A DNA stretch of 64,000 nucleotides from positions 11,944 to 75,943 of IMG/VR virus record IMGVR_UViG_2974792740_000001; one strand, 5' to 3'. The translations under genes were made by a program, and so were the position numbers. Under the pieces are notes generated by a model. It ran no database searches. It saw only the letters and a list, made by a program, of their open reading frames with translations, and was not told the origin of the DNA. Positions 37,694 to 50,313 of this stretch are shown piece after piece. Numbering within the stretch: position 1 is the stretch's first letter; every line of letters starts with the position of its first letter. This stretch comes from a virus (Duplodnaviria > Caudoviricetes).

Positions 37694-38348
37694 CGATGAT
37701 GAGGTCGGCCTCAATTATCAGGCGCTCCGCATGTTGTGGCGGTCTCGGGCCATTCACCGGCAGGCCGTTACTGACTGGATGACCCAGCGCCCCACCGTCG
37801 ATGAAGTTGAGTTGCCCGAGGATGTGACGGAGAAGCTGCAACGCCTCGCCGCGCAGAACTCCCGCCGGCCTGACGCTGTGCAGCTCATTCAGCAAATCCC
37901 GTATGTGGTTGCGTGGTTTCGGGAATCGATGGTCGCTGGGTCTCATCCGGGCGGCGAAGAGGACATCAAGTCTTCTGCTGGCCCCTCGTCTCGCCCACCT
38001 TTTCGTGTGGCGTTCATGTCGGCTGCTGATCGTGAGGTGGCCGCTCTGGTGCATTGGTGTCACGAGTGTGGCGTCAGTGTGCGTGGCCCGGTGTACATGG
38101 TTGCCGGGTCTATCCGTGGTGTGTCGCCGCGTGATCCGAGTTCCCCGATCCGCCAGATGGCCGAAGAGTTGTCGGACGCTGTTTCGCGGTGGGGTGAACC
38201 GGAAGGTATCTACACCGACCCTGAGTTTGGTTTGTGGTCGATTCGTTCTGCGCACTACGGCATTTGGCCCGAGTTGGGGTCTTTGTTCACTGAGGATCCG
38301 GATGTTCCGGATCCGGATGATGATGTTGAGCCGGAAGGTTTGTTTTGA
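37656..38348 (+). CDS. Hypothetical protein
   Basis: 230-aa ORF; TTGA overlap with the next gene. Confidence 0.6.
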   Translation: MQYRDGHDPYTFDDDEVGLNYQALRMLWRSRAIHRQAVTDWMTQRPTVDEVELPEDVTEKLQRLAAQNSRRPDAVQLIQQIPYVVAWFRESMVAGSHPGGEEDIKSSAGPSSRPPFRVAFMSAADREVAALVHWCHECGVSVRGPVYMVAGSIRGVSPRDPSSPIRQMAEELSDAVSRWGEPEGIYTDPEFGLWSIRSAHYGIWPELGSLFTEDPDVPDPDDDVEPEGLF

Positions 38349-39292
38349 CAGAACTGATTGCAATGCGGGGCCTGCCTGGTTCCGGGAAGACCACCCGTGC
38401 TCGCCGAATCGCCGCCGCCACTGGGGCTGTCGTTGTCGGTCGTGACTTCGAACGCTTCCAGATGTTCGGCGAGTGGTGGACTGGCGGCAAACCCGAGCAC
38501 GAGGATGCAGTCACGGTCGCCCTGAACGCCAAGGTGCGAGCCTTGCTGAAGGCGAATCAATCTGTGGTCGTTGACAACACGCACATTCGCCTCGGTTACC
38601 TGAAGGATTGGGCGAAGGTCGCTTCGGAGTGTGGGGCCACGTTCCGGATTGAAGACGTGAAGACGGACGTTGAAGAGTGCATCCGCCGAGACAATGACCG
38701 TTTTCACAACTTCGGTGGCGACCGGGCGAGCTTGGGTGGCGACAGACTGGTGGGCGAGCAGGCGATTCGCCGAATGGCATCACGCATTGACTGGCGTATG
38801 CCGAAGCCGGTAGCGCCCATTGAGATCGAACCCGTTGACCACAAGGTTGCCGAAGAGCTGATGCTTCCCGGCGCGATCCTCGTGGACATCGACGGCACAC
38901 TCGCCCACATGACGGGGCGCAGCCCGTACGACTACAGCCGCGTTGGTGAAGACATGGTGGACTTCGCTGTTCGCGGGATCGTTCAGGACTACGAAGAACT
39001 CGGTTACGACATCATCGTGTGCTCGGGCCGTGACGACGAATGCCGCACCATGACCGTGGCATGGTTGCTCGCCAACGACATCCCGTTCCACAAGCTGCTC
39101 ATGCGGCCCACGGACGCCAAGGACGCCAACGGCAACAAACTCCCCGACTGGATCGTCAAATACAACCTGTTCAACGAGAACGTGCGCGGCAAGTACGACG
39201 TGGCATTCGTCCTCGACGACCGCAATCAGGTTGTGGACATGTGGCGCAAGCTCGGGCTGAAGTGTTTGCAGGTTGCCCCCGGCGACTTCTGA
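38345..39292 (+). CDS. Polynucleotide 5'-kinase / 3'-phosphatase (T4 PseT-like)
   Basis: GLPGSGKT P-loop; HAD DIDGTLA, SGR, LLMR, LDDR. Confidence 0.92.
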   Translation: MTELIAMRGLPGSGKTTRARRIAAATGAVVVGRDFERFQMFGEWWTGGKPEHEDAVTVALNAKVRALLKANQSVVVDNTHIRLGYLKDWAKVASECGATFRIEDVKTDVEECIRRDNDRFHNFGGDRASLGGDRLVGEQAIRRMASRIDWRMPKPVAPIEIEPVDHKVAEELMLPGAILVDIDGTLAHMTGRSPYDYSRVGEDMVDFAVRGIVQDYEELGYDIIVCSGRDDECRTMTVAWLLANDIPFHKLLMRPTDAKDANGNKLPDWIVKYNLFNENVRGKYDVAFVLDDRNQVVDMWRKLGLKCLQVAPGDF

Positions 39293-39462
39293 TGTACGTC
39301 GCGCCGGATCGTCCAGCTCTCGAATGCCAGGCGTGCGGTATGGCACTGCAAGCACTCACTGACGAGCAAGCCGCCGACATGGCACTCAATCCCTACAACT
39401 ACATCGCCTTTTGTGCCCCGTGTAAGCGCAAGGGCTATCACATAGAACCAGGATTCTTATGA
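39292..39462 (+). CDS. Small zinc-ribbon protein
   Basis: CQAC..CAPC; TGATG overlap. Confidence 0.6.
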   Translation: MYVAPDRPALECQACGMALQALTDEQAADMALNPYNYIAFCAPCKRKGYHIEPGFL

Positions 39463-40775
39463 CCAACAGTCTCTCTGTTGTCGGCAGTAGCAACTACGCC
39501 GCACAGATCGTCCGAGTGCCCGCCACCTACCCGCTCGACGGACTCGATAACCTCGTCGGCATCAAGGTTTTCAACAGCCAAATCCTCACCCAGAAGGGCG
39601 AAGTCGAACCGGGCGACCTCCGCGTCTACTTCCCCGCAGAGGTTCGCCTCTCCGACAAGTACCTGTCGGCCAACAACCTGTTCCGGGATCCGTTCCTCAA
39701 CCGGGACAGCACGGCCACACCCGGCTACTTCGAAACCAACGGTCGCGTCAAGGCAATCAAGCTGCGCGGGCACCGCTCGGACGGCCTGCTGATGCCGATC
39801 GAATCTCTGCTCGCCTTCGGTGCTCGCGGAGAGGATCTGGTTGAGGGTGCCGTGTTCGACACCATCAACGGGATCGAGATTTCCCGCAAGTATGAGGTGA
39901 AGACCAATGCGCCGGCCGATCCCTCAGCGAAGAAGGTGAAGAAGGCGTTCAAGCGGGTCACCACGAAGGTGTTCCCCGAGCACATCGACACCGACAACTT
40001 CTTCCGCAACCAGCACCTTCTCGACACGTCGCGGGAAGTCATCATCACCCAGAAGTTGCACGGCACGAGCATCCGTGTGGGGCGCGTTCCGGTGCTGCGC
40101 GAGATCGGCTGGGTGGAGCGCATCTTCAACAAGGTGGGTGGCCTGTTCGGCATCTCCACGGCTTCGCACGCCTACGAGGTTGTGTGTGGTTCGCGGAAGG
40201 TCATCAAGGATGTGACGAACCCGCGCAGCCAGCACTACTACGGCACGGACATCTGGTCACAGTACGGCATCCAGATCGGTGACCTGATCCCCGAGGGGTT
40301 CATCGTGTACGGCGAGTTGATCGGTTGGACGCCGGATGGCAAGCCGATTCAGAAGAACTACACCTACGACGTGCCGGTTGGTAAGCGTGAGCTGTACGTG
40401 TACCGGGTGGCTCGCGTGGATGTGAATGGCACGATGACGGATTTGTCGTGGGATGCGGTGCGTGAGTTTTGCGTTGAGCGTGGGCTGAAGCATGTGCCCG
40501 AGCTGTGGCGGATCAATGACGAGTACACGACAGCTTACGGTGAGGATCTTGAAGAGCACGTCTTGGAGCTGATGGACAAGCGTCACGCCGATCTCGATTG
40601 GCAGCCCAAGGATCCGCAGATTCCTTTGTCCGATCCGAAGACGGTTGATGAGGGTGTGTGCATCCGCCAGGAGCGGCTTGTTCCCACGATCCTGAAGGCG
40701 AAGTCGCCTGTGTTCTTGCAGCACGAAACCAAGCAGCTCGATACGGGCGAAGCCGACCTCGAAAGCGCAGCATGA
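39459..40775 (+). CDS. ATP-dependent RNA ligase (Rnl2/DRB0094-like) with N-terminal OB domain
   Basis: QKLHGTS (I), YGELIG (III), EGVCIR (IV), LKAKS (V). Confidence 0.88.
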   Translation: MTNSLSVVGSSNYAAQIVRVPATYPLDGLDNLVGIKVFNSQILTQKGEVEPGDLRVYFPAEVRLSDKYLSANNLFRDPFLNRDSTATPGYFETNGRVKAIKLRGHRSDGLLMPIESLLAFGARGEDLVEGAVFDTINGIEISRKYEVKTNAPADPSAKKVKKAFKRVTTKVFPEHIDTDNFFRNQHLLDTSREVIITQKLHGTSIRVGRVPVLREIGWVERIFNKVGGLFGISTASHAYEVVCGSRKVIKDVTNPRSQHYYGTDIWSQYGIQIGDLIPEGFIVYGELIGWTPDGKPIQKNYTYDVPVGKRELYVYRVARVDVNGTMTDLSWDAVREFCVERGLKHVPELWRINDEYTTAYGEDLEEHVLELMDKRHADLDWQPKDPQIPLSDPKTVDEGVCIRQERLVPTILKAKSPVFLQHETKQLDTGEADLESAA

Positions 40776-41623
40776 CAGTTCACCTGTACGCAGCCGACCT
40801 CACCGACAGGTCGAAACCACTCATCAACGTTCAACGCTTCCAGTTTCCCGGTGGCGAACAACACCTCCACATGCCCGCCCTGATCGACGGACACGAGTAC
40901 GAATGGGTTGCTGTAGTCAAGGGGGCCGACGCCAACGAACTCGTCACAGCGGGCCTCCTGGCCGACATCGCCTACCAGCGAGGGGAAGCATCCTCACTCC
41001 TGCTGCCCTACCTTCCGGCTGCACGGGCTGATCGGGGCCAGCCGTTCGCCCTCGACACCTACGCGAATGTCATTGGCGCACTCAACTTCGACGTGGTTGC
41101 CACTCTCGATGTTCACAGCCAGGTAGGCATCGATATGGAGTTCGGGGACTCCTACCATGTGCACCTGTCGGCCACTCCGCTTGTGGTTGCGGCGGTTGAG
41201 CATCAGGACAAGTTTGATGCTGTGATCGCTCCGGACTCTGGCGCTTTCGATCGTGCGCAGTCGGTGGCCCTGGCCCTGCGGGTGCCGGTGTACAGCGGCG
41301 TGAAGGAACGGGACTTCGCGACCGGGAAGCTCAGCAACTTCTATTACTCGGGTCCGACCGACGGCAATTTCCTTGTGGTCGATGACATCTGTGATGGTGG
41401 TGGCACGTTCGCCGGGTTTGCTGCGGTGTCGGGGATTCCTCGCGAGAACCTGTCGTTGTGGATCACGCATGGCATCTTCTCGAAGGGCTCTGCGTCGAAT
41501 TTGTTCCGCAATTACAAGGCTGTGTACACGACGGATTCGCATCCGGGTTCGGCGAATCTTCATGCGACTGTTCGTGTGCCGGTTGTGCCGCACATGTGGA
41601 AGCACGTAGCAGGAGGTCTGTGA
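40772..41623 (+). CDS. Ribose-phosphate pyrophosphokinase-like protein (possible Adps)
   Basis: FPGGEQH, LPYLPAARADR, LDVHS, APDSGA, VVDDICDGGGTF. Confidence 0.9.
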   Translation: MTVHLYAADLTDRSKPLINVQRFQFPGGEQHLHMPALIDGHEYEWVAVVKGADANELVTAGLLADIAYQRGEASSLLLPYLPAARADRGQPFALDTYANVIGALNFDVVATLDVHSQVGIDMEFGDSYHVHLSATPLVVAAVEHQDKFDAVIAPDSGAFDRAQSVALALRVPVYSGVKERDFATGKLSNFYYSGPTDGNFLVVDDICDGGGTFAGFAAVSGIPRENLSLWITHGIFSKGSASNLFRNYKAVYTTDSHPGSANLHATVRVPVVPHMWKHVAGGL

Positions 41624-41841
41624 TGGGTCGGATGCAAGTCAAGGATGTGGAGTCCACCAAGCGCGTTCTCTCTATGGCTGACGATCAGTCGAAGTTGATC
41701 CTAACGGAAGCGCTGGGATCTGGCGTTGCGGTCATAGAGGTTGCCGGTAGTTCCTACAGTGCGTACGCCAGCATTGTGCTCGACAAAGAGTCCGCAGTCA
41801 TTCTCGGTGAACGCCTCATCGAATTCGGAAGCCAACCCTGA
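41623..41841 (+). CDS. Hypothetical protein
   Basis: TGATG overlap. Confidence 0.5.
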   Translation: MGRMQVKDVESTKRVLSMADDQSKLILTEALGSGVAVIEVAGSSYSAYASIVLDKESAVILGERLIEFGSQP

Positions 41842-41849
41842 AAGGGAAC

Positions 41850-43337
41850 ATGACAAGCACACGTACCTATTTCGAACCCGTAGCGGCACTCTTCCAGACC
41901 GACGCCTACAAGCTCGGACACATCCAGCAATACCAGCTCGCCGGAAACGTCACCCGCGTCTACAGCAACTACACCAACCGCAAGAGTCGAATCCCCGGCG
42001 TCGACAACGTTGTCCACTTCGGCCTTCAGGCATTCATCCAGAAGAACCTCATGGAAGCGTTTGAACCGTTCTTCGAGTCCGATGAGGACGTGGTTGCCGA
42101 ACTGTACGAAGAGCGTGTCACGTCGATCCTGGGGCCGAATACGATCGGTTCCGATCACATCCGTGCACTGCACCGACTCGGGTATCTTCCGCTGCGGTTC
42201 TGTGCGGTCCCGGAAGGCACCCTCGTGCCCATCCGGATCCCCTCGTTCACGGTGGAGAACACTCTGCCTGAGTTCTTCTGGCTGACCAACTACATCGAGA
42301 CCGCCCTGTCGGCTGGTGTGTGGCAGGCGAGCACGTCGGCCACCATTGCCAGCGAGTACCGGCAGATCCTTGACACGGCGGCGTGGGAGACGGGTAGCAG
42401 CTTCGATGCTGTCGACTTCCAGGTTCACGATTTCAGCTACCGGGGAATGAGTTCCAATGAGTCTGCGCAGGTTTCGGGTGCGGCGCACCTGCTTTCGTTC
42501 TCCGGGACGGACTCTCTGGTCGCTCTCGATTGGATTGACCGCTACTACGGAGGCTCGGATTACGTTGCGGCGTCAGTCCCGGCGACAGAGCACAGTGTCA
42601 TGTGCACCGGAATCGCCAAGCTCGGTGAGCAGGAAATGTTCTCCAAGCTTCTCGACCTCTACCCGTCGGGGATCGTTTCCGTCGTGTCAGACACCTTCGA
42701 TCTGTGGCGTGTCCTCACGGAGTACCTGCCAGCACTGCGCACTAAGGTACTTGCGCGAGACGGGAAGCTAGTCATCCGCCCGGACTCGGGCGACCCGCAG
42801 AAGATCATCTGTGGCGACCCTGACGCCCCTGAGGGCAGCAATGAGTACCTGGGTGTGATCGGCCTGCTGGATCGCACGTTCGGTTCGACTCCGAACAAGC
42901 TCGGCTACTACGAGCTGGACTCGCACGTCGGCATCATCTACGGCGATTCGATCACCGTGGAGCGGGCAAAGGCGATCACTGACGATCTGGCTTCGCAGAA
43001 CTACGCGAGCACGAATGTGGTGTTCGGTGTCGGTAGCTTCACCTACCAGTACAACACGCGTGACACCTTCGGTTCGGCGATGAAGGCTACGTGGGCTGAG
43101 GTGGACGGTGAGGGTGTCAATCTGCTGAAAGACCCGATCACTGACGATGGCACGAAGAAGTCGGCTACGGGCCGTCTGGCGGTCAATGTGGATGACATGG
43201 GTGCCTGGACCCTGACCGAGAAGGCTAACGAATGGGAAGAGGCCCTGAGTGACCTTCAGCCCGTTTGGGAGAACGGTCAGTTCATCCAGCGTCAGACCTT
43301 CCAGGACGTGAGGAAGAAGCTCGCATACTGGGGGTGA
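41850..43337 (+). CDS. Nicotinamide phosphoribosyltransferase-like protein (possible Namat)
   Basis: TDAYKLGH, HDFSYRG, AAHLLSFSGTD, PATEHS, VVSDTFD, IRPDSGDP, IYGDSIT. Confidence 0.95.
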   Translation: MTSTRTYFEPVAALFQTDAYKLGHIQQYQLAGNVTRVYSNYTNRKSRIPGVDNVVHFGLQAFIQKNLMEAFEPFFESDEDVVAELYEERVTSILGPNTIGSDHIRALHRLGYLPLRFCAVPEGTLVPIRIPSFTVENTLPEFFWLTNYIETALSAGVWQASTSATIASEYRQILDTAAWETGSSFDAVDFQVHDFSYRGMSSNESAQVSGAAHLLSFSGTDSLVALDWIDRYYGGSDYVAASVPATEHSVMCTGIAKLGEQEMFSKLLDLYPSGIVSVVSDTFDLWRVLTEYLPALRTKVLARDGKLVIRPDSGDPQKIICGDPDAPEGSNEYLGVIGLLDRTFGSTPNKLGYYELDSHVGIIYGDSITVERAKAITDDLASQNYASTNVVFGVGSFTYQYNTRDTFGSAMKATWAEVDGEGVNLLKDPITDDGTKKSATGRLAVNVDDMGAWTLTEKANEWEEALSDLQPVWENGQFIQRQTFQDVRKKLAYWG

Positions 43338-43342
43338 CCTGA

Positions 43343-43882
43343 TTGGCGATCGACTACACCAAGCCGACTGCCGGTAGGGACTCGATGGCCGGAAAGTTGC
43401 TGGCGCAGAAACAGGGTCGCACTACTGGGCTACGCGACTCGGTGTCGTGGGGCGCGGAACGCGAACTGCTGATGCAGGTTGGCGAGCAGTTGAAAGCCAT
43501 ACACGGGGCGGTCGATGGACCCAAGCCGGTACAGAAGATTTCGTACAAGAAAGTACGCAAGCCTGATGTTTCATCGGCCCCCCGCTTCAAGGCCCTAAAG
43601 CCATGCCCACGGTGTGGCGCGTGGCGAGTCCACCGACTGGCCGAGCCCAACCCGGACCCACCCAACGTGGTCGACAACGGCGAAATCCTCTGCTCCGCAG
43701 ACGACATCAACGCCGAAGTCTACCTCGGGTGGGCCACCTCAACGACCGAGATTGTCGGCTACGGCAACCTTCAGCCAACGAGGACCATCAAGAACGGGCC
43801 GCGACTCGACCGCTTCGACGAACGAGGATTCGAGGTCATTCGCATCTGCCCAGAATGCGCACACACATGGGGTGAAATCTGA
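43343..43882 (+). CDS. Hypothetical zinc-ribbon protein
   Basis: CPRC..H and CPEC.H.W. Confidence 0.6.
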   Translation: MAIDYTKPTAGRDSMAGKLLAQKQGRTTGLRDSVSWGAERELLMQVGEQLKAIHGAVDGPKPVQKISYKKVRKPDVSSAPRFKALKPCPRCGAWRVHRLAEPNPDPPNVVDNGEILCSADDINAEVYLGWATSTTEIVGYGNLQPTRTIKNGPRLDRFDERGFEVIRICPECAHTWGEI

Positions 43883-44649
43883 ACACACACAAACAGATCG
43901 CATACGACAACCTGATGATGCTCGGCATAGCAGGATCGCAGCTCTACGGCACCAACCTGGACAACGGCGACAACGACCAGATGGGTGTTTGCCTGGAACC
44001 GCCCGCCTACGTGACTGGACTGGAAACCTTCGAGCAGTACCAGTACCATTCCGCCGGCAAGGACACTCGTTCCAGCGCAGACGATCTCGATCTCACGATC
44101 TACAGTCTCCGCAAATGGGCAAAGCTTGCAGCGGCAGGCAACCCCACGGTCCTGCTGTTGGGGTTCACTCCCGATGAGCTACTGCTCCATGACAGCCTGG
44201 ACGGTCGGATCCTTCGCTACTCGATGCACCGTTTCATGTCCCGGCAGGCTGCGGGCAAGTTCTACGGCTACCTGGAATCCCAACGCAAGCAGATGCTCGG
44301 TCTCACCGGACGTAAGCACAGCAACCGGCCAGAGCTGGTCGAGCAGTTCGGTTTCGACACCAAGTTCGCCTACCACGCAGTGAGACTCGGAATGCAAGGC
44401 GTCGAGTACCTGACGACGGGCGAGATGACGCTGCCCATGCGGGAAGAGGAACGCAACTACCTGATCGACATCAGGCAAGGCCGCGAGTCCTTCGACGATG
44501 TGGTCACGGTCATCAACCTGTACCAAGGGCTGCTGCTCAAGCTGATGCGTTCCGCCGAGCTGCCCCCGCGTGCCGACTATCAGTGGATTAATCGGTGGCT
44601 CACTGACACGTATGTGATCCACTGGAACGAGAGGGGCTATCTGCTCTGA
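43879..44649 (+). CDS. Pol-beta-family nucleotidyltransferase (PF10127/RlaP-like)
   Basis: GSQLYG..DNDQMGV, GNPTVL, FDTKFAYHAVRL; start inferred at CTG 43879 (first ATG 43915). Confidence 0.8.
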   Translation: MNTHKQIAYDNLMMLGIAGSQLYGTNLDNGDNDQMGVCLEPPAYVTGLETFEQYQYHSAGKDTRSSADDLDLTIYSLRKWAKLAAAGNPTVLLLGFTPDELLLHDSLDGRILRYSMHRFMSRQAAGKFYGYLESQRKQMLGLTGRKHSNRPELVEQFGFDTKFAYHAVRLGMQGVEYLTTGEMTLPMREEERNYLIDIRQGRESFDDVVTVINLYQGLLLKLMRSAELPPRADYQWINRWLTDTYVIHWNERGYLL

Positions 44650-45382: not shown

Positions 45383-45530
45383 CGTTCAGATGCGTAGAGA
45401 CGTTGGTTACTTCCATGCTAAGGACGAGGTTGCGGGTTCGAATCCCGCCCAGTCAGGCCGCAAGGCAGGTCAGGTAGCTCAATCGGCTAGAGCGCGTAAA
45501 CACACCAACACTCGGCAAGTTCCCTGAACG
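45383..45530 (+). ncRNA. Y RNA-like unit 3 (YrlA-type permuted tRNA module)
   Basis: CGTTCAG/CTGAACG stem; T-arm, GCAA-capped hairpin, then D-arm TA-GCTC-AATCGGCTA-GAGC. Confidence 0.8.
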
Positions 45531-45542
45531 ATCAAACATTCC

Positions 45543-45627
45543 GCCGTGATGCGAAGCACGAACGTTACTTCATCAGTTGCTAAAGAAACCGAACAGAAAC
45601 ACGTTCATGCAACTCAGTTCACACGGC
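45543..45627 (+). ncRNA. Y RNA-like unit 4 (short)
   Basis: GCCGTG/CACGGC stem; ATGCGAAG..GTTACTTC..AGTTCA; inner AGTTGC/GCAACT. Confidence 0.65.
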
Positions 45628-45654
45628 ACAATTCAACACACAGGAGCAGAAGGA

Positions 45655-47253
45655 ATGTCGCGCTACAACACCGCCACCAAGGCCCGACCCGCACAAAAGT
45701 CGAGCGCCATCAAGGCCGGTACGAAGCCCAAAACCAACCCACAGGGTGGAATCGGATTCAAGCGCGGCGACGCCAAGTCCGAACTGTTCCTCTCCGCTGC
45801 AACCTCATTCATGCAGCCCAAATTCTATGAAACCGAAAGCGACCTGCGCGCACGTCAGCGCAAGCTCATCGCCAAGGTGGCCGTCTCCGACCCGGAGTGG
45901 ACTTTCGAGTTCCTGACGTGGCTCCGCACCGAGGGCAACCTGCGCACCGGGTCGCTCACCCTGGCCGCTGACGCGGTTCGGGAACGCCTGAAGGCGGGCA
46001 AAACGGGCTGGAACCGGCAGATCATCTCCACGGTCCTGCGCCGGCCTGACGAGCCTGGCGAAATGCTGGCCTACTGGACAACCAACTACGGTCGCAACGT
46101 GCCGATCTCGGTCAAGCGTGGCATCGCGGACGTCATTGAGGGCCAGTACAACGAGCGCAACTTTCTGAAGTACGACAGCGCGTCTCGCGCCTTCCGGTTC
46201 GGTGATGTGATCGAGCTGACCCATCCGAAGATGACGGGCAGCCGGGGTGATCTCGCCTCGTATGCGATCACTGTGGGTAAGGGCCATGACGCCGAGATCC
46301 CGTCTTCCCTCTCGATGATCCGAAAGAATCGCAACCTGCGTCAGTGGACTCCCGGCGAGATCGTGGAGCGCGCAAAGTACCGGGGCGACGATCTGATGCC
46401 ACTGAGCGACGTGCTCAGCGCAGCAGGTATGACGTGGGAAGATATTCCCGCACTCGTCAACGGCCCCTGGACGCCCGAACTGTGGGAAGCCGCCATCCCC
46501 AACATGGGCGTGATGGCCCTCATGCGGAACTTGAGAAACTTCGACCAAGTCGGCATCTCCAAGCAAGCCGCAAAGATGGTCCGCGACAAACTGTCCGACC
46601 CTGAGGCTGTCCGCAAGTCCCGAATCCTTCCCCTCCGTGCACTGTCCGCCTACAAGGCTGTCAGCAATTCGCGCTGGCACGGCGCACTCGAAGACGCCGT
46701 GGACATCACTCTGGATAACGTGCCCGCCCTGAAGGGCCGCACGCTGATCCTGGTGGACTGCTCGGGCTCCATGTTCTTCGGTAACGGAACTGATCTGAGC
46801 TACGCAGAGTCGGCAGCAGTGTTCGGTACTGCACTCGCGGCGAAGGCAGAGAAGGCCACCCTCGTGCACTACGGGTCCAGCTCGCGAGAGGTTCCGGTCC
46901 CACGTGGCGCTTCGGTGTTGGAGATGGCCCGCTCGGTGCACAGCATGGGCGGCACAGCCACCGCAGCAGCGATCCAGCAGCACTACAACGGCCACGATCG
47001 TGTCATCCTGCTGACTGATGAGCAGCACAACGGTGGCGGCTACGGATGGGGCTCGCGCTACGTGTCTCAGAACCCGAGCGACTACGTGCCAAAGCACATT
47101 CCGCTCATCACCTTCAACCTCGCCGGATACAAGCTCGGCGGCGTCAAGGACGGCCCTAATCGGCTGACATTCTCGTCGCTGTCCGACTCGGCCTGGAAGC
47201 TTGTTGACATGTTCGGCAACGGCATGTCCGGATGGCCCTGGGAGGCAAACTGA
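45655..47253 (+). CDS. rsr: Ro60/TROVE-domain RNA-binding protein
   Basis: TROVE motifs (LRRPDEPGEMLAYW, KYD, MALMRNLRNF, RILPLR) and VWA MIDAS DCSGS..TDEQ. Confidence 0.93.
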   Translation: MSRYNTATKARPAQKSSAIKAGTKPKTNPQGGIGFKRGDAKSELFLSAATSFMQPKFYETESDLRARQRKLIAKVAVSDPEWTFEFLTWLRTEGNLRTGSLTLAADAVRERLKAGKTGWNRQIISTVLRRPDEPGEMLAYWTTNYGRNVPISVKRGIADVIEGQYNERNFLKYDSASRAFRFGDVIELTHPKMTGSRGDLASYAITVGKGHDAEIPSSLSMIRKNRNLRQWTPGEIVERAKYRGDDLMPLSDVLSAAGMTWEDIPALVNGPWTPELWEAAIPNMGVMALMRNLRNFDQVGISKQAAKMVRDKLSDPEAVRKSRILPLRALSAYKAVSNSRWHGALEDAVDITLDNVPALKGRTLILVDCSGSMFFGNGTDLSYAESAAVFGTALAAKAEKATLVHYGSSSREVPVPRGASVLEMARSVHSMGGTATAAAIQQHYNGHDRVILLTDEQHNGGGYGWGSRYVSQNPSDYVPKHIPLITFNLAGYKLGGVKDGPNRLTFSSLSDSAWKLVDMFGNGMSGWPWEAN

Positions 47254-48063: not shown

Positions 48064-48163
48064 CTGAGTAGAAGTTTCGGCTCCGTTTCATGGACACTCC
48101 AACGTCAATCAAACGGGCAGTCCCTTTCTAGGACAAAAGTCCTGTGCGGCAACACAGGCATCT

Positions 48164-48238
48164 GCCCGCGTAGCTTAATGGTAAAGCCCCGGCTTGTGGT
48201 GCCGGTGATTACGGTTCGACTCCGTGCGCGTGGAACCA
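48164..48238 (+). tRNA. tRNA-His(GTG), imperfect acceptor stem
   Basis: D, anticodon (CCGGC-TTGTGGT-GCCGG) and T arms canonical; ends ACCA. Confidence 0.75.
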
Positions 48239-48239
48239 A

Positions 48240-48375
48240 CGGCCGATAGTCCAATGGAGTGGTCCCCACATATCGAACTAGCGGGCGTGCACGCCGACGG
48301 CTAGCGAATTTCTGTGAAGGGTCCAGGACGCCCCAAATGGTGGAGGAAATGCGGGTTCGAATCCCGCGAGGCCGA
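48240..48375 (+). ncRNA. tRNA-Pro(TGG)-like RNA with ~65-nt D-loop insertion
   Basis: C1:G72, A73, GTCC/GGAC D-stem, canonical T-arm; insert forms a nested hairpin. Confidence 0.55.
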
Positions 48376-48494
48376 CGAAATGACCGGACGACCGTGGAAG
48401 CCGGTTGGTCATGAACGAGCGCAACTTGCCTGCCGGTGGCTAGGTTGCGTCTGGTAGACGGTGGGGCTTCCGGAAACAATTCCCCACCTCGCAA

Positions 48495-48571
48495 TCGCAT
48501 GTAGTTCAAAGGGTAGAGCAACCGGGCGTACGCTGAACCGGGGAATGTGGGTTCGAATCCCACCATGCGGG
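48495..48571 (+). ncRNA. tRNA-like RNA with 12-nt anticodon loop
   Basis: 7-bp acceptor stem, D and T arms canonical; loop GCGTACGCTGAA. Confidence 0.65.
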
Positions 48572-48603
48572 CTGCGCTTGATCGTGCGCGTAAACGATCG
48601 GCT

Positions 48604-48676
48604 GCCTTAGAAACCGAATTGGCTAGGTGCCTGACTTCCAATCAGGATTTTGCGGGTTCAAGTCCCGTCTAAGGCT
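48604..48676 (+). tRNA. tRNA-Gly(TCC)
   Basis: GCCTTAG/CTAAGGC; CCTGA-CTTCCAA-TCAGG; U73. Confidence 0.9.
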
Positions 48677-48810
48677 CCGGCCCTGCTGCTGGGGACCGAT
48701 ATGCCGAGTAACCAAGACTCGGTGCAGTAGCGCGGTGGTGGTGGCTAGATTCCAACAACACGTCACTAGGGTTGCAACCTGCCGATAGCGCTGTCGGCTG
48801 AATAGCTCCA

Positions 48811-48885
48811 CTCTCCGTAGCTCAGATGGTTTAGAGCAGGGCACTCTTAATGCTCGGGTCGCAGGTTCGAACCCTGCCGGGGAGA
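48811..48885 (+). tRNA. tRNA-Lys(CTT)
   Basis: Full cloverleaf; GGGCA-CTCTTAA-TGCTC. Confidence 0.93.
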
Positions 48886-48961
48886 CGGCCCTCCTGCTGG
48901 GGTTATACGCCAGATCGCTACTGGCACAGCAGGGCATCAGGCAACGTCGGGCCTGATGTTT

Positions 48962-49032
48962 CGTCGCATAAGTCTCAGCGGCAAGAGCTGGGGGTATTCC
49001 CCTGGTCGCCGGTTCGATTCCGGCTGCGACAC
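48962..49032 (+). ncRNA. Initiator-tRNA-like RNA with 4-nt anticodon loop
   Basis: C1xA72 mismatch, G-C-rich anticodon stem, loop TATT, canonical T-arm. Confidence 0.6.
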
Positions 49033-49228
49033 GATGGGGTGGTATTCCCAGTTAGCACAACCAGTCGACGGTCCGTGCTTGAAAAATGACCAGGGCGGCA
49101 TTGCAGTGCCAACTAGCCACGACGGACTAAGCCCGATGAAGGCCGTCTAACCCCTCGCTGGTCAAGCCCTGCAAGGTACGGGCCGGGGACAATTTGGAGT
49201 GCACATCAAGCGGGGGTGCACTCATTCG

Positions 49229-49312
49229 GGGCTTGTGGCGGAATTGGCAGACGCGCCGGATTCAAAATCCGGAGTCCTTTCGGACGTGTGGGTTCGACCC
49301 CCACCAGGCCCA
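49229..49312 (+). tRNA. tRNA-Leu(CAA)
   Basis: CCGGA-TTCAAAA-TCCGG; long variable arm; A73. Confidence 0.93.
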
Positions 49313-49313
49313 C

Positions 49314-49568
49314 ATGGCACTGAGACCGCCACCACTGGCAGAACCCCATGAGGTTGATGACCTCTCGCATCTCGAAGCACTGAGGCGACTTTCAGCCATC
49401 AGCGCGTACACGTACGCGGCCCACAATCAAGTGGATGCGGACGTGAACTCAATGGCAACGAAGGGCTGTTGGGCACCACCAATCGAGCACGGTACCTACA
49501 AGCCGGGTCACGCACCTTCGGGTGCGTATGCCCGCCTGATCGGCCTGCTCACGAAGGGAAAGAAGTAG
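49314..49568 (+). CDS. Hypothetical protein
   Basis: ATG 2 nt after the tRNA-Leu discriminator base. Confidence 0.45.
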   Translation: MALRPPPLAEPHEVDDLSHLEALRRLSAISAYTYAAHNQVDADVNSMATKGCWAPPIEHGTYKPGHAPSGAYARLIGLLTKGKK

Positions 49569-49571
49569 CAC

Positions 49572-49757
49572 ATGTTTGGACGTAAGAAGAAGCGCGCCAC
49601 CAGCGCCACGCCCTCGCGCAGCAGCTACGACAGCTGCAGCAGCACCACCCCGTATGGCGGCTACAGCAACAGCGGCTACGACAGCGGCTCGTCCTACTCG
49701 TCGTCGTGTGACAGCTCGTCGTCCTCGTCTTCGTGTGACAGCGGCGGAAGCTTCTGA
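49572..49757 (+). CDS. Ser-rich small protein
   Basis: SSYSSSCDSSSSSSSCDSGG; TGATG overlap with next gene. Confidence 0.55.
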   Translation: MFGRKKKRATSATPSRSSYDSCSSTTPYGGYSNSGYDSGSSYSSSCDSSSSSSSCDSGGSF

Positions 49758-49948
49758 TGGGTACCGCGCTGGTAATCGGGGGGATTCTCCTCGGGGCGCT
49801 GCTCATCGGCGCGGCGGTCGCATGTGTCGCAAAGGCTGTGCTCGACTCGCCTCTGTCGCAGGGTGTTGCGCAGGGAAGCTCCACCTACAAGGGTGGGTTT
49901 GACCTCAGTCATCCCACTGGGGTTGCGCTACTGGTGGCGGCTACCTGA
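49757..49948 (+). CDS. Small membrane protein
   Basis: Hydrophobic N-terminus. Confidence 0.55.
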   Translation: MGTALVIGGILLGALLIGAAVACVAKAVLDSPLSQGVAQGSSTYKGGFDLSHPTGVALLVAAT

Positions 49949-50043
49949 TGGAGTTCCTGGCAATCGTTGGCGCAGTGACATGCATCGCCGTAATCTGTTA
50001 TGTCGCAGTCGGCGTCGGGGTTCTCATCACGCTCTCGCGGTGA
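49948..50043 (+). CDS. 31-aa membrane peptide (absent from ORF track)
   Basis: MEFLAIVGAVTCIAVICYVAVGVGVLITLSR; TGATG overlap. Confidence 0.55.
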   Translation: MEFLAIVGAVTCIAVICYVAVGVGVLITLSR

Positions 50044-50051
50044 GCCCGTAT

Positions 50052-50122
50052 TCCCTGATCGTCTAACGGCAGGACGCCGCGCTCTGGACGCGGAGATTGA
50101 GGTTCGAATCCTTGTCGGGGAG
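50052..50122 (+). tRNA. tRNA-Gln(CTG)
   Basis: U1:A72, G73; CCGCG-CTCTGGA-CGCGG. Confidence 0.93.
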
Positions 50123-50183
50123 CTTGCCCTTGGGATGGGGTATAGCGCGGTTGGCCGAACCGCGATAAACAAAATGGCCGTAA

Positions 50184-50262
50184 CCGGGTAACCGCATGGA
50201 GCGGAATGGGACTGTAAATCCCAGGCGGAAACGCACCGGAGGTTCGATTCCTTCTACCCGGA
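50184..50262 (+). tRNA. tRNA-Tyr(GTA) with C1:G72
   Basis: TGGGA-CTGTAAA-TCCCA; long variable arm; atypical short 8-9 connector. Confidence 0.85.
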
Positions 50263-50275
50263 CCCAACAGACGAA

Positions 50276-50313
50276 ACGCCAGCAGACATTCATCGTGCCT
50301 GCTGGCGTCTTTT
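50276..50313 (+). terminator. Intrinsic terminator after the tRNA array
   Basis: ACGCCAGCAG/CTGCTGGCGT then CTTTT. Confidence 0.75.

Follow-up and report, generated by a model that had tools for sequence, protein, structure and literature searches.

Two families of H-type RNA pseudoknots, PK-A and PK-B, are predicted immediately behind tRNA genes and tRNA look-alikes in the tRNA cluster of a Gordonia phage of the subfamily Deeyouvirinae. The two families are unrelated in sequence and share one common build, consisting of a 5-bp stem 1 (S1), a single U as loop 1 (L1) and a 7-bp stem 2 (S2), with S1 closing without a gap (L2 = 0), which gives the pattern 5-1-7-0-5. Comparison with related genomes indicates that the knots are genuine, lineage-specific RNA structures, located in the 3′ trailers within a polycistronic tRNA transcript of the phage. 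As to their role, the reading we prefer, with a probability of about 0.35, is that a knot mimics the acceptor/T-arm stack of a tRNA and may serve in cis as a processing punctuation mark.

The stretch of DNA analysed, here called the window, comprises 64,000 nt and corresponds to positions 11944-75943 of a 75.9-kb virus record. The closest public relative of this phage is Gordonia phage Rabbitrun (Nevillevirus, Deeyouvirinae), and four Octobienviruses (Octobien14, Syleon, Sephiroth and Kudefre) are more distant relatives. Seven tRNA genes are located on the plus strand between 48163 and 50264, as called by ARAGORN and Rfam. The cluster looks like one operon, since it occupies a single strand, no internal terminator was found in it and the sole plus-strand terminator-like site lies at 50295-50308. 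The features around the knots are as follows.

48495..48572, plus strand: tRNA-like gene with a 12-nt anticodon loop, discriminator G48571, C74 at 48572 (ARAGORN; Rfam tRNA, 42.3 bits)
48573..48600, plus strand: PK-A, predicted 28-nt H-type pseudoknot; S1 48573-77/48586-90, L1 U48578, S2 48579-85/48594-600, loop 3 (L3) UAA 48591-93
48601..48603, plus strand: G-C-U spacer between PK-A and tRNA-Gly, its U directly before position +1 of tRNA-Gly
48604..48678, plus strand: tRNA-Gly(UCC), discriminator U48676, then C74-C75 (ARAGORN, Rfam)
48679..48731, plus strand: PK-B copy 1 (after Gly); predicted S1 48679-83 with 48692-94 and 48696-97, bulged A48695, L1 U48684, S2 48685-91/48725-31, hairpin 48703-09/48717-23 in loop 3
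48811..48886, plus strand: tRNA-Lys(CUU), discriminator A48885, C74 at 48886 (ARAGORN, Rfam)
48887..48933, plus strand: PK-B copy 2 (after Lys); predicted S1 48887-91/48900-04 with two G.U pairs, L1 U48892, S2 48893-99/48927-33, hairpin 48909-13/48921-25 in loop 3
48935..48959, plus strand: hairpin after the Lys copy of PK-B
49035..49050, plus strand: 4-bp hairpin with an 8-nt loop, no S1
50125..50142, plus strand: 5-bp hairpin with an 8-nt loop, no S1

An island of RNA-repair and NAD-salvage genes (38345-44649) lies just upstream of the tRNA cluster and encodes PNKP (kinase plus HAD phosphatase), an RNA ligase, a Prs-like protein, a Nampt-like protein and an RlaP nucleotidyltransferase. Genes for a Ro60 (TROVE) protein and a Prim-Pol are also found just upstream of the cluster. 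A YrlA-like Y RNA (45408-45524) immediately precedes the phage Ro60 gene (45577-47253); its score of 44 bits is below the Rfam cut-off of 69. In the Octobienviruses tRNA-Lys is directly followed by a permuted, YrlA-like tRNA look-alike with the order T arm, closed acceptor, D arm (L002:1764-1861 and L003:2094-2196; 29.5 and 25.4 bits), and no Ro60 gene was found in these phages by tblastn. Within the window's tRNA cluster several defective tRNA look-alikes are interleaved. A conserved spacer with paired CCGTTT and AAACGG arms (window 48064-48162, L002:1272-1386) is located before the first tRNA in the window, whereas it follows tRNA-Asn in the Octobienviruses. At 49313-49316 of the window an ATG stands directly 3′ of the tRNA-Leu end, and since relatives annotate a CDS from the base after tRNA-Leu, the tRNA-Leu 3′ processing site and the start codon abut.

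The preliminary description of this region had proposed a recurrent pseudoknot of 5-bp S1, one U and 7-bp S2 behind three tRNA or tRNA-like genes. This architecture holds for PK-A and for the Lys copy of PK-B. For the Gly copy only S2 and the loop-3 hairpin, both of which are present in the nested minimum free energy structure, could be upheld, because its S1 is not a continuous 5-bp stem and consists of 3 bp, the bulged A48695 and 2 bp. PK-A is GC-rich, has an L3 of 3 nt and leaves only four bases unpaired. Folded as single hairpins, S1 and S2 of PK-A reach nearly the same energy (−7.3 and −7.6 kcal/mol), and the two can coexist only as a pseudoknot. The presence of G.U pairs makes the fold specific to the tRNA strand. 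RNAfold applied to the whole region was uninformative (z = −0.2). A U run, as would mark an intrinsic terminator, follows none of the knots. The hairpin behind the Lys copy (48935..48959) is kept in Rabbitrun with a changed sequence and is probably another structured spacer outside the knot; hairpins also fill other spacers of the tRNA cluster. Two further sites (49035-50 and 50125-42), formerly taken for partial copies, turned out to be plain hairpins, which have no S1 partner and no sequence likeness to the knots and are identical in Rabbitrun.

PK-A occurs as one copy in each of six related genomes (model R1). Octobien14 has an extra, degenerate PK-A-like unit in tandem with the first (L002:1486-1513), with a 5-bp S1, a 5-bp S2, a 2-nt L2 and UAAAA as loop 3. 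The Rabbitrun PK-A was found by reading of the sequence only, because the tRNA look-alike upstream of it was not called by ARAGORN. In the six-row alignment of the six genomes 70 of the 72 pair cells are paired. The middle pair of S1 is C-G, A-U or U-A depending on the genome and three pairs of S2 show double changes, so that compensatory changes are found in both stems. None of 500 shuffles reached the observed covariation score, and when the partner strands were slid against each other, pairing fell to 19-53% of cells. The unpaired flanks drift while the paired positions stay paired. Thus, the motif is present and covarying in related phages, contrary to the absence that the preliminary description had named as a ground for refutation.

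For PK-B a third copy is available, the Rabbitrun orthologue of the Lys copy (L001:1429-1475). Pairs were counted by script over the three copies, since a MAFFT alignment of them misplaces the 3′ strand of S1. Among the three copies S2 changes from G-C to C-G, from G.U to G-C and from C-G to U-A, and the covariation between the Gly and Lys copies reported earlier (the first two of these changes) was correct. The Rabbitrun copy carries C-G to U-A double changes both in S2 and in the loop-3 hairpin, and the hairpin of the Gly copy has a wholly different sequence, which is nevertheless paired. Support for S1 of PK-B consists of invariance and one-sided changes only. The fold of S2 and that of the PK-A knot are therefore highly probable, and S1 of PK-B, being less well supported, is assigned with lower confidence.

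The occurrence of such a motif would by itself say little. A loose 5+7 pseudoknot descriptor gave 61 matches on the plus strand of the window, and about 2% of 6-nt windows in these loci score as high as the real copies. As the 5+7 descriptor is common by chance, the case rests on conservation. The trailers of 40 tRNAs from four other actinophages, JustBecause, Peregrin, Smoothie and Lolly9, contained one pseudoknot at a score ≥10 against a chance expectation of 1.6.

Searches for further copies remained within the known subfamily. A scan of IMG/VR with two core patterns and two patterns anchored on the T loop returned matches that, except for Rabbitrun, all failed the pairing test and were attributed to chance. 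The same was true of all matches from pattern scans of metagenome contigs and genome contigs, and thus no copy outside the known subfamily was found in IMG/VR, metagenomes or genomes. Protein searches in IMG/VR with Prim-Pol and Ro60 led to Rabbitrun only. Of 4227 Rfam families, only tRNA models matched in the region, and a search of 406 nt with the threshold relaxed to E ≤10 added none; among the models without a match in the region were pistol, twister, hatchet and other small ribozymes, xrRNAs and the preQ1 and SAM-II riboswitches. Neither a published description nor an Rfam entry of the knot element was found. By its sequence, the element appears as a separate family within an already known general kind, pseudoknotted RNA at viral tRNA ends. 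To this kind belong the theta ribozymes, which are minimal HDV-like ribozymes associated with tRNAs in Caudoviricetes of the gut (Kienbeck et al. 2024, PMC10879173).

The wcaG RNA (Rfam RF01761; Weinberg et al. 2010, PMC2864571) is another knot found in the neighbourhood of viral tRNAs. As read from the model alignments, the wcaG unit resembles PK-A in being an H-type knot of about 30 nt with an A-rich loop 3 and with pairing between the hairpin loop and the 5′ flank. It differs in having UUU as L1, an S1 of 4-5 bp, an S2 of 6 bp, an L3 of 5-6 nt and a UGG flank, compared to L1 U, 5+7 bp, an L3 of 3 nt (PK-A) and an N-C flank in the knots described here. Identity with wcaG was rejected, because RF01761 gave no match at E ≤10 in the window's genome, Rabbitrun, Octobien14, Syleon or the knot region. 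The same search yielded 74-92 bits in the cyanophages Syn9, S-PM2 and S-RSM4, and no match above E 0.01 in P-SSM2 and P-SSM4. In cyanophage S-PM2 a tRNA gene lies downstream of the wcaG RNA at a distance of 95 nt, both being encoded on one strand (L202:1501-1600 and 1695-1766).

The tRNA clusters of T4 and T5 contain conserved non-tRNA structures within the phage tRNA operon, which are larger, tRNA-like or hairpin RNAs. They share with the knots their conservation and their co-transcription in the tRNA operon and differ from them in size; we know of no fixed pseudoknot at nucleotide 75 described there.

The junction between tRNA and knot is constant. All nine copies (six PK-A, three PK-B) begin right after N73-C74 of the upstream tRNA or look-alike, PK-A at nucleotide 75 and PK-B at nucleotide 75 or 76. 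In the window, with discriminators at 48571 (odd tRNA), 48676 (Gly-UCC) and 48885 (Lys-CUU), the knots start 2, 3 and 2 nt after the discriminator, as had been described. The genes upstream of the knots are not constant:

PK-A, window: odd tRNA with the 12-nt anticodon loop (48495..48572)
PK-A, Octobien14 and Kudefre: tRNA-Trp
PK-A, Syleon: tRNA-His
PK-A, Sephiroth: tRNA with a ccag loop
PK-A, Rabbitrun: Pro-like mimic with a 65-nt insert
PK-B: tRNA-Gly and tRNA-Lys

On the other side, tRNA-Gly, the next tRNA, starts 3 nt behind PK-A in three genomes and 8, 50 and about 120 nt behind it in the others, the longer distances being due to insertions. Since the upstream tRNA is swapped and the downstream distance is free while the junction stays constant, what is preserved is the junction with the tRNA 3′ end. 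A cis role in the trailer is thereby supported, in agreement with the earlier proposal of an element tied to the tRNA 3′ end, of which both variants, trailer processing signal and nuclease block, are possible from the sequence data.

At the PK-A locus the leader is conserved among the four Octobienviruses and the pseudoknot trailer in all five genomes compared, while the tRNA in between is exchanged (odd tRNA, Trp, His, ccag-loop; window 48470-48606 vs L002:1365-1530, L003:1475-1655, L004:1432-1565 and L005:1409-1540). This exchange looks like cassette replacement of tRNA genes. The window (48240-48375) and Rabbitrun (L001:783-919) share a conserved tRNA look-alike that carries an insert of about 65 nt; it is followed by PK-A in Rabbitrun and by a long hairpin (48383-48413) in the window.

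It had been stated that none of the tRNAs in question encodes CCA and that the knot stands where CCA should be. The first statement is right for the tRNAs that precede knots in the window, all of which have C74 (Gly has C74-C75); tRNA-His has ACCA. It does not describe a special trait, as 36 of the 40 tRNAs in JustBecause, Peregrin, Smoothie and Lolly9 lack CCA as well. CCA-less tRNA genes are the rule in the actinophages checked, and the missing CCA is not special to knots. Nor is the knot a general substitute for CCA, given that it is missing from the other actinophages checked and from the majority of tRNAs within these clusters, among them His, Leu, Gln, Tyr and Asn (in relatives also Gly). 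With 3′ ends taken as trimmed by ARAGORN (window 48163-50264; L001-L005; L139-L142), all 75 tRNA genes from ten actinophages, 35 in these loci and 40 elsewhere, end in N73-C74, a few of them in CC or CCA. Of the CCA triplet, the first C is thus almost always encoded and the remainder almost never, which suggests that C74 matters before CCA addition.

A comparable N-C terminates the knots. It follows S2 in nine of nine copies, where neighbouring columns vary and the C forms the invariant column 37 of alignment A4; L1 is U in eight of nine copies. In the window N-C is never extended to CCA, and in the Rabbitrun PK-B the sequence at this place is C-C-A. We prefer the tRNA-end mimic because the 5-1-7-0-5 build shared identically by both unrelated families, the U of L1 and the invariant C after S2 go beyond the needs of a mere roadblock. 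According to this reading, the 7-bp S2 would correspond to an acceptor-like helix whose 3′ strand exits into N-C, as tRNA genes do into N73-C74 (75 of 75 actinophage genes). Stacked gaplessly on the T-stem-like 5-bp S1, it would form a 12-bp helix, and the single U 5′ of S2 would take the N−1 position of a pre-tRNA. The upstream tRNA would be cut by RNase Z 3′ of its N73, a second RNase Z cut being possible behind the N of the knot itself, and RNase P would act in loop 1, at the following tRNA or at both. Such cuts beside or within the module could free the CCA-less tRNA near its mature end for trimming and CCA addition, and the compact knot might meanwhile halt exonucleases running through the transcript. 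The placement of pseudoknotted processing RNAs at CCA-less tRNA ends by other phages, exemplified by the theta ribozymes (PMC10879173), is in line with this reading.

Bacterial RNase P cuts within loop 1 of H-type pseudoknots, the substrates being a biotin aptamer and the tRNA-like structure of TYMV (Kosek et al. 2025, PMC12710915). This cutting depends on a 3′ RCCA, is fastest with U at N−1 and is inefficient (PMC12710915). The knots resemble these substrates in that the 3′ strand of S2 leads into a discriminator-like base, a U precedes S2 and the stacked helices reach about 12 bp, the length of acceptor plus T stem (5+7 with L2 = 0; two PK-A copies have 5+6 bp, and S1 of the Gly PK-B is bulged). 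They differ from TYMV in having N-C only, in the lack of a tRNA-like body and in their internal position in a transcript rather than at the 3′ end of a genome.

Several observations speak against the mimic. The DNA encodes only N-C after S2 and not the RCCA needed in the published RNase P pseudoknot cutting, the knots have no equivalent of the T loop, and the majority of tRNAs in these clusters have no such knot. In the window PK-A ends only 3 nt before tRNA-Gly, where RNase P already cuts, so that a further site for this enzyme seems superfluous. The 7+5 bp lengths and the N-C flank may also be coincidental: only about 5-6 independent lineages are available, S2 has 6 instead of 7 bp in two PK-A copies, and the wcaG unit has 4-5 + 6 bp and no N-C. 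A further-reaching idea, to which we give distinctly less credit than to the mimic itself, is that H-type knots at nucleotide 75 form a convergent, undescribed class of tRNA-end mimics in which a 7-bp 'acceptor', stacked on a 5-bp 'T stem', ends in an N-C of its own and would be recognised by RNase P, RNase Z or the CCA-adding enzyme. Viruses as unlike as actinophages and, with wcaG, cyanophages might employ them as punctuation in transcripts with several tRNAs or as decoys for enzymes attacking tRNA 3′ ends.

Almost as likely as the punctuation mimic is an inert, fast-folding and very stable end-cap or spacer, which would block 3′-5′ exonucleases such as PNPase without specific recognition of the knot by any enzyme. 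After the RNase Z cut, the structured 5′ end of the downstream RNA would bar loading of RNase J or RNase E, and the knot may insulate neighbouring tRNAs from misfolding. A compact, GC-rich element with four unpaired bases in PK-A would suit this task, the knots start within 2 nt of the expected RNase Z cut, and the other spacers of the cluster are filled with hairpins too. Nevertheless, a plain hairpin would do the same job equally well, and an end-cap leaves unexplained why two unrelated families have the identical 5-1-7-0-5 build, why L1 is U in eight of nine copies, why the C two bases past S2 is invariant and why the junction to C74 is fixed.

Considerably less probable is release of the knots as small RNAs of 30-55 nt acting in trans as acceptor-arm decoys or ligands, with host defence enzymes attacking tRNA 3′ ends, phage RNA-repair enzymes or Ro60 as candidate binders. 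The location of the cluster within an island of PNKP, RNA ligase, RlaP, Ro60 and Y-RNA-like genes and the interleaved defective look-alikes fit this possibility, as does RlaP, which adds 1-2 nucleotides to damaged RNA 3′ ends (PMC12776372). It is weakened by the presence of PK-A in the Octobienviruses, which have no Ro60 gene; for this reason a link of the knots to phage Ro60 was rejected. Conversely, phage VanLee has Ro60 and Y-RNA arrays and no such knot trailers, and a free decoy would need no fixed junction to tRNA C74.

Lack of any function is improbable to a still greater degree. The knots would then be neutral hitch-hiking spacers or recombination scars of tRNA cassette exchange that fold by accident, as the restriction of the element to one small subfamily, the chance frequency of the descriptor and the repeated exchange of the tRNA before PK-A might suggest. 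Against this stand the several independent compensatory double changes, which keep both stems paired while the unpaired flanks drift, the maintenance of the pairs in six genomes and the convergence of two unrelated sequences on one build.

Theta ribozymes abut CCA-less phage tRNAs, mostly within ±1 nt, and their phages are enriched for nucleotidyltransferase and RNA ligase genes (PMC10879173). The knots are comparable in being pseudoknotted RNA within a few bases of the 3′ end of a CCA-less phage tRNA, in phages with such genes, and PK-B has the strand order P1-P2-P1′-P4-P2′ of the HDV-like and theta fold. S1 of the knots starts 2-3 nt after the discriminator (after C74 or C75). In contrast to the knots, the hosts of theta phages are Bacteroidota or Bacillota and not an actinobacterium, and PK-A is half the size of a theta ribozyme. 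In all copies the 5′ strand of S2 abuts the 3′ strand of S1 (L2 = 0), which leaves no room for P3, L3 and P1.1. Where HDV and theta ribozymes have the catalytic C as first base of J4/2, PK-B has a single A (Lys copies) or G (Gly copy), and PK-A has neither P4 nor J4/2. A change of this C served as the inactive control in the theta study (PMC10879173). HDV-type covariance models did not match the knots, either in 2.6 kb searched at E ≤5 or in 406 nt searched at E ≤10, and HDV-like and pistol identities were rejected on strand order and for want of a covariance-model match. The small ribozyme of the preliminary description, whether a new self-cleaving RNA or a reduced HDV-like or theta descendant cutting the tRNA free, is therefore the least probable of the explanations: its position and strand order and a phage kinase-phosphatase that could remove the cyclic phosphate are outweighed by the missing P3/L3/P1.1, the A or G in place of the catalytic C, the four unpaired nucleotides of PK-A and the lack of a ribozyme family at E ≤10. 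Self-cleavage by the knots is unlikely, and we do not file them as ribozymes.

How phages mature CCA-less tRNAs is poorly known beyond T4 and the theta ribozymes. The knots offer a protein-free RNA module of 28 nt that is kept by selection at one exact position behind interchangeable tRNAs. As a compact and easily mutated handle, this module would help to ask which nucleases of actinobacterial hosts process phage tRNA operons and what role the orphan wcaG-type knots near viral tRNAs have. It would also bear on whether a bare pseudoknot can stand in for a tRNA with RNase P or RNase Z in vivo, a question that is open according to the RNase P literature (PMC12710915). Even if the knot is only a stable end-cap, it would still be a useful portable RNA-stabilising spacer.
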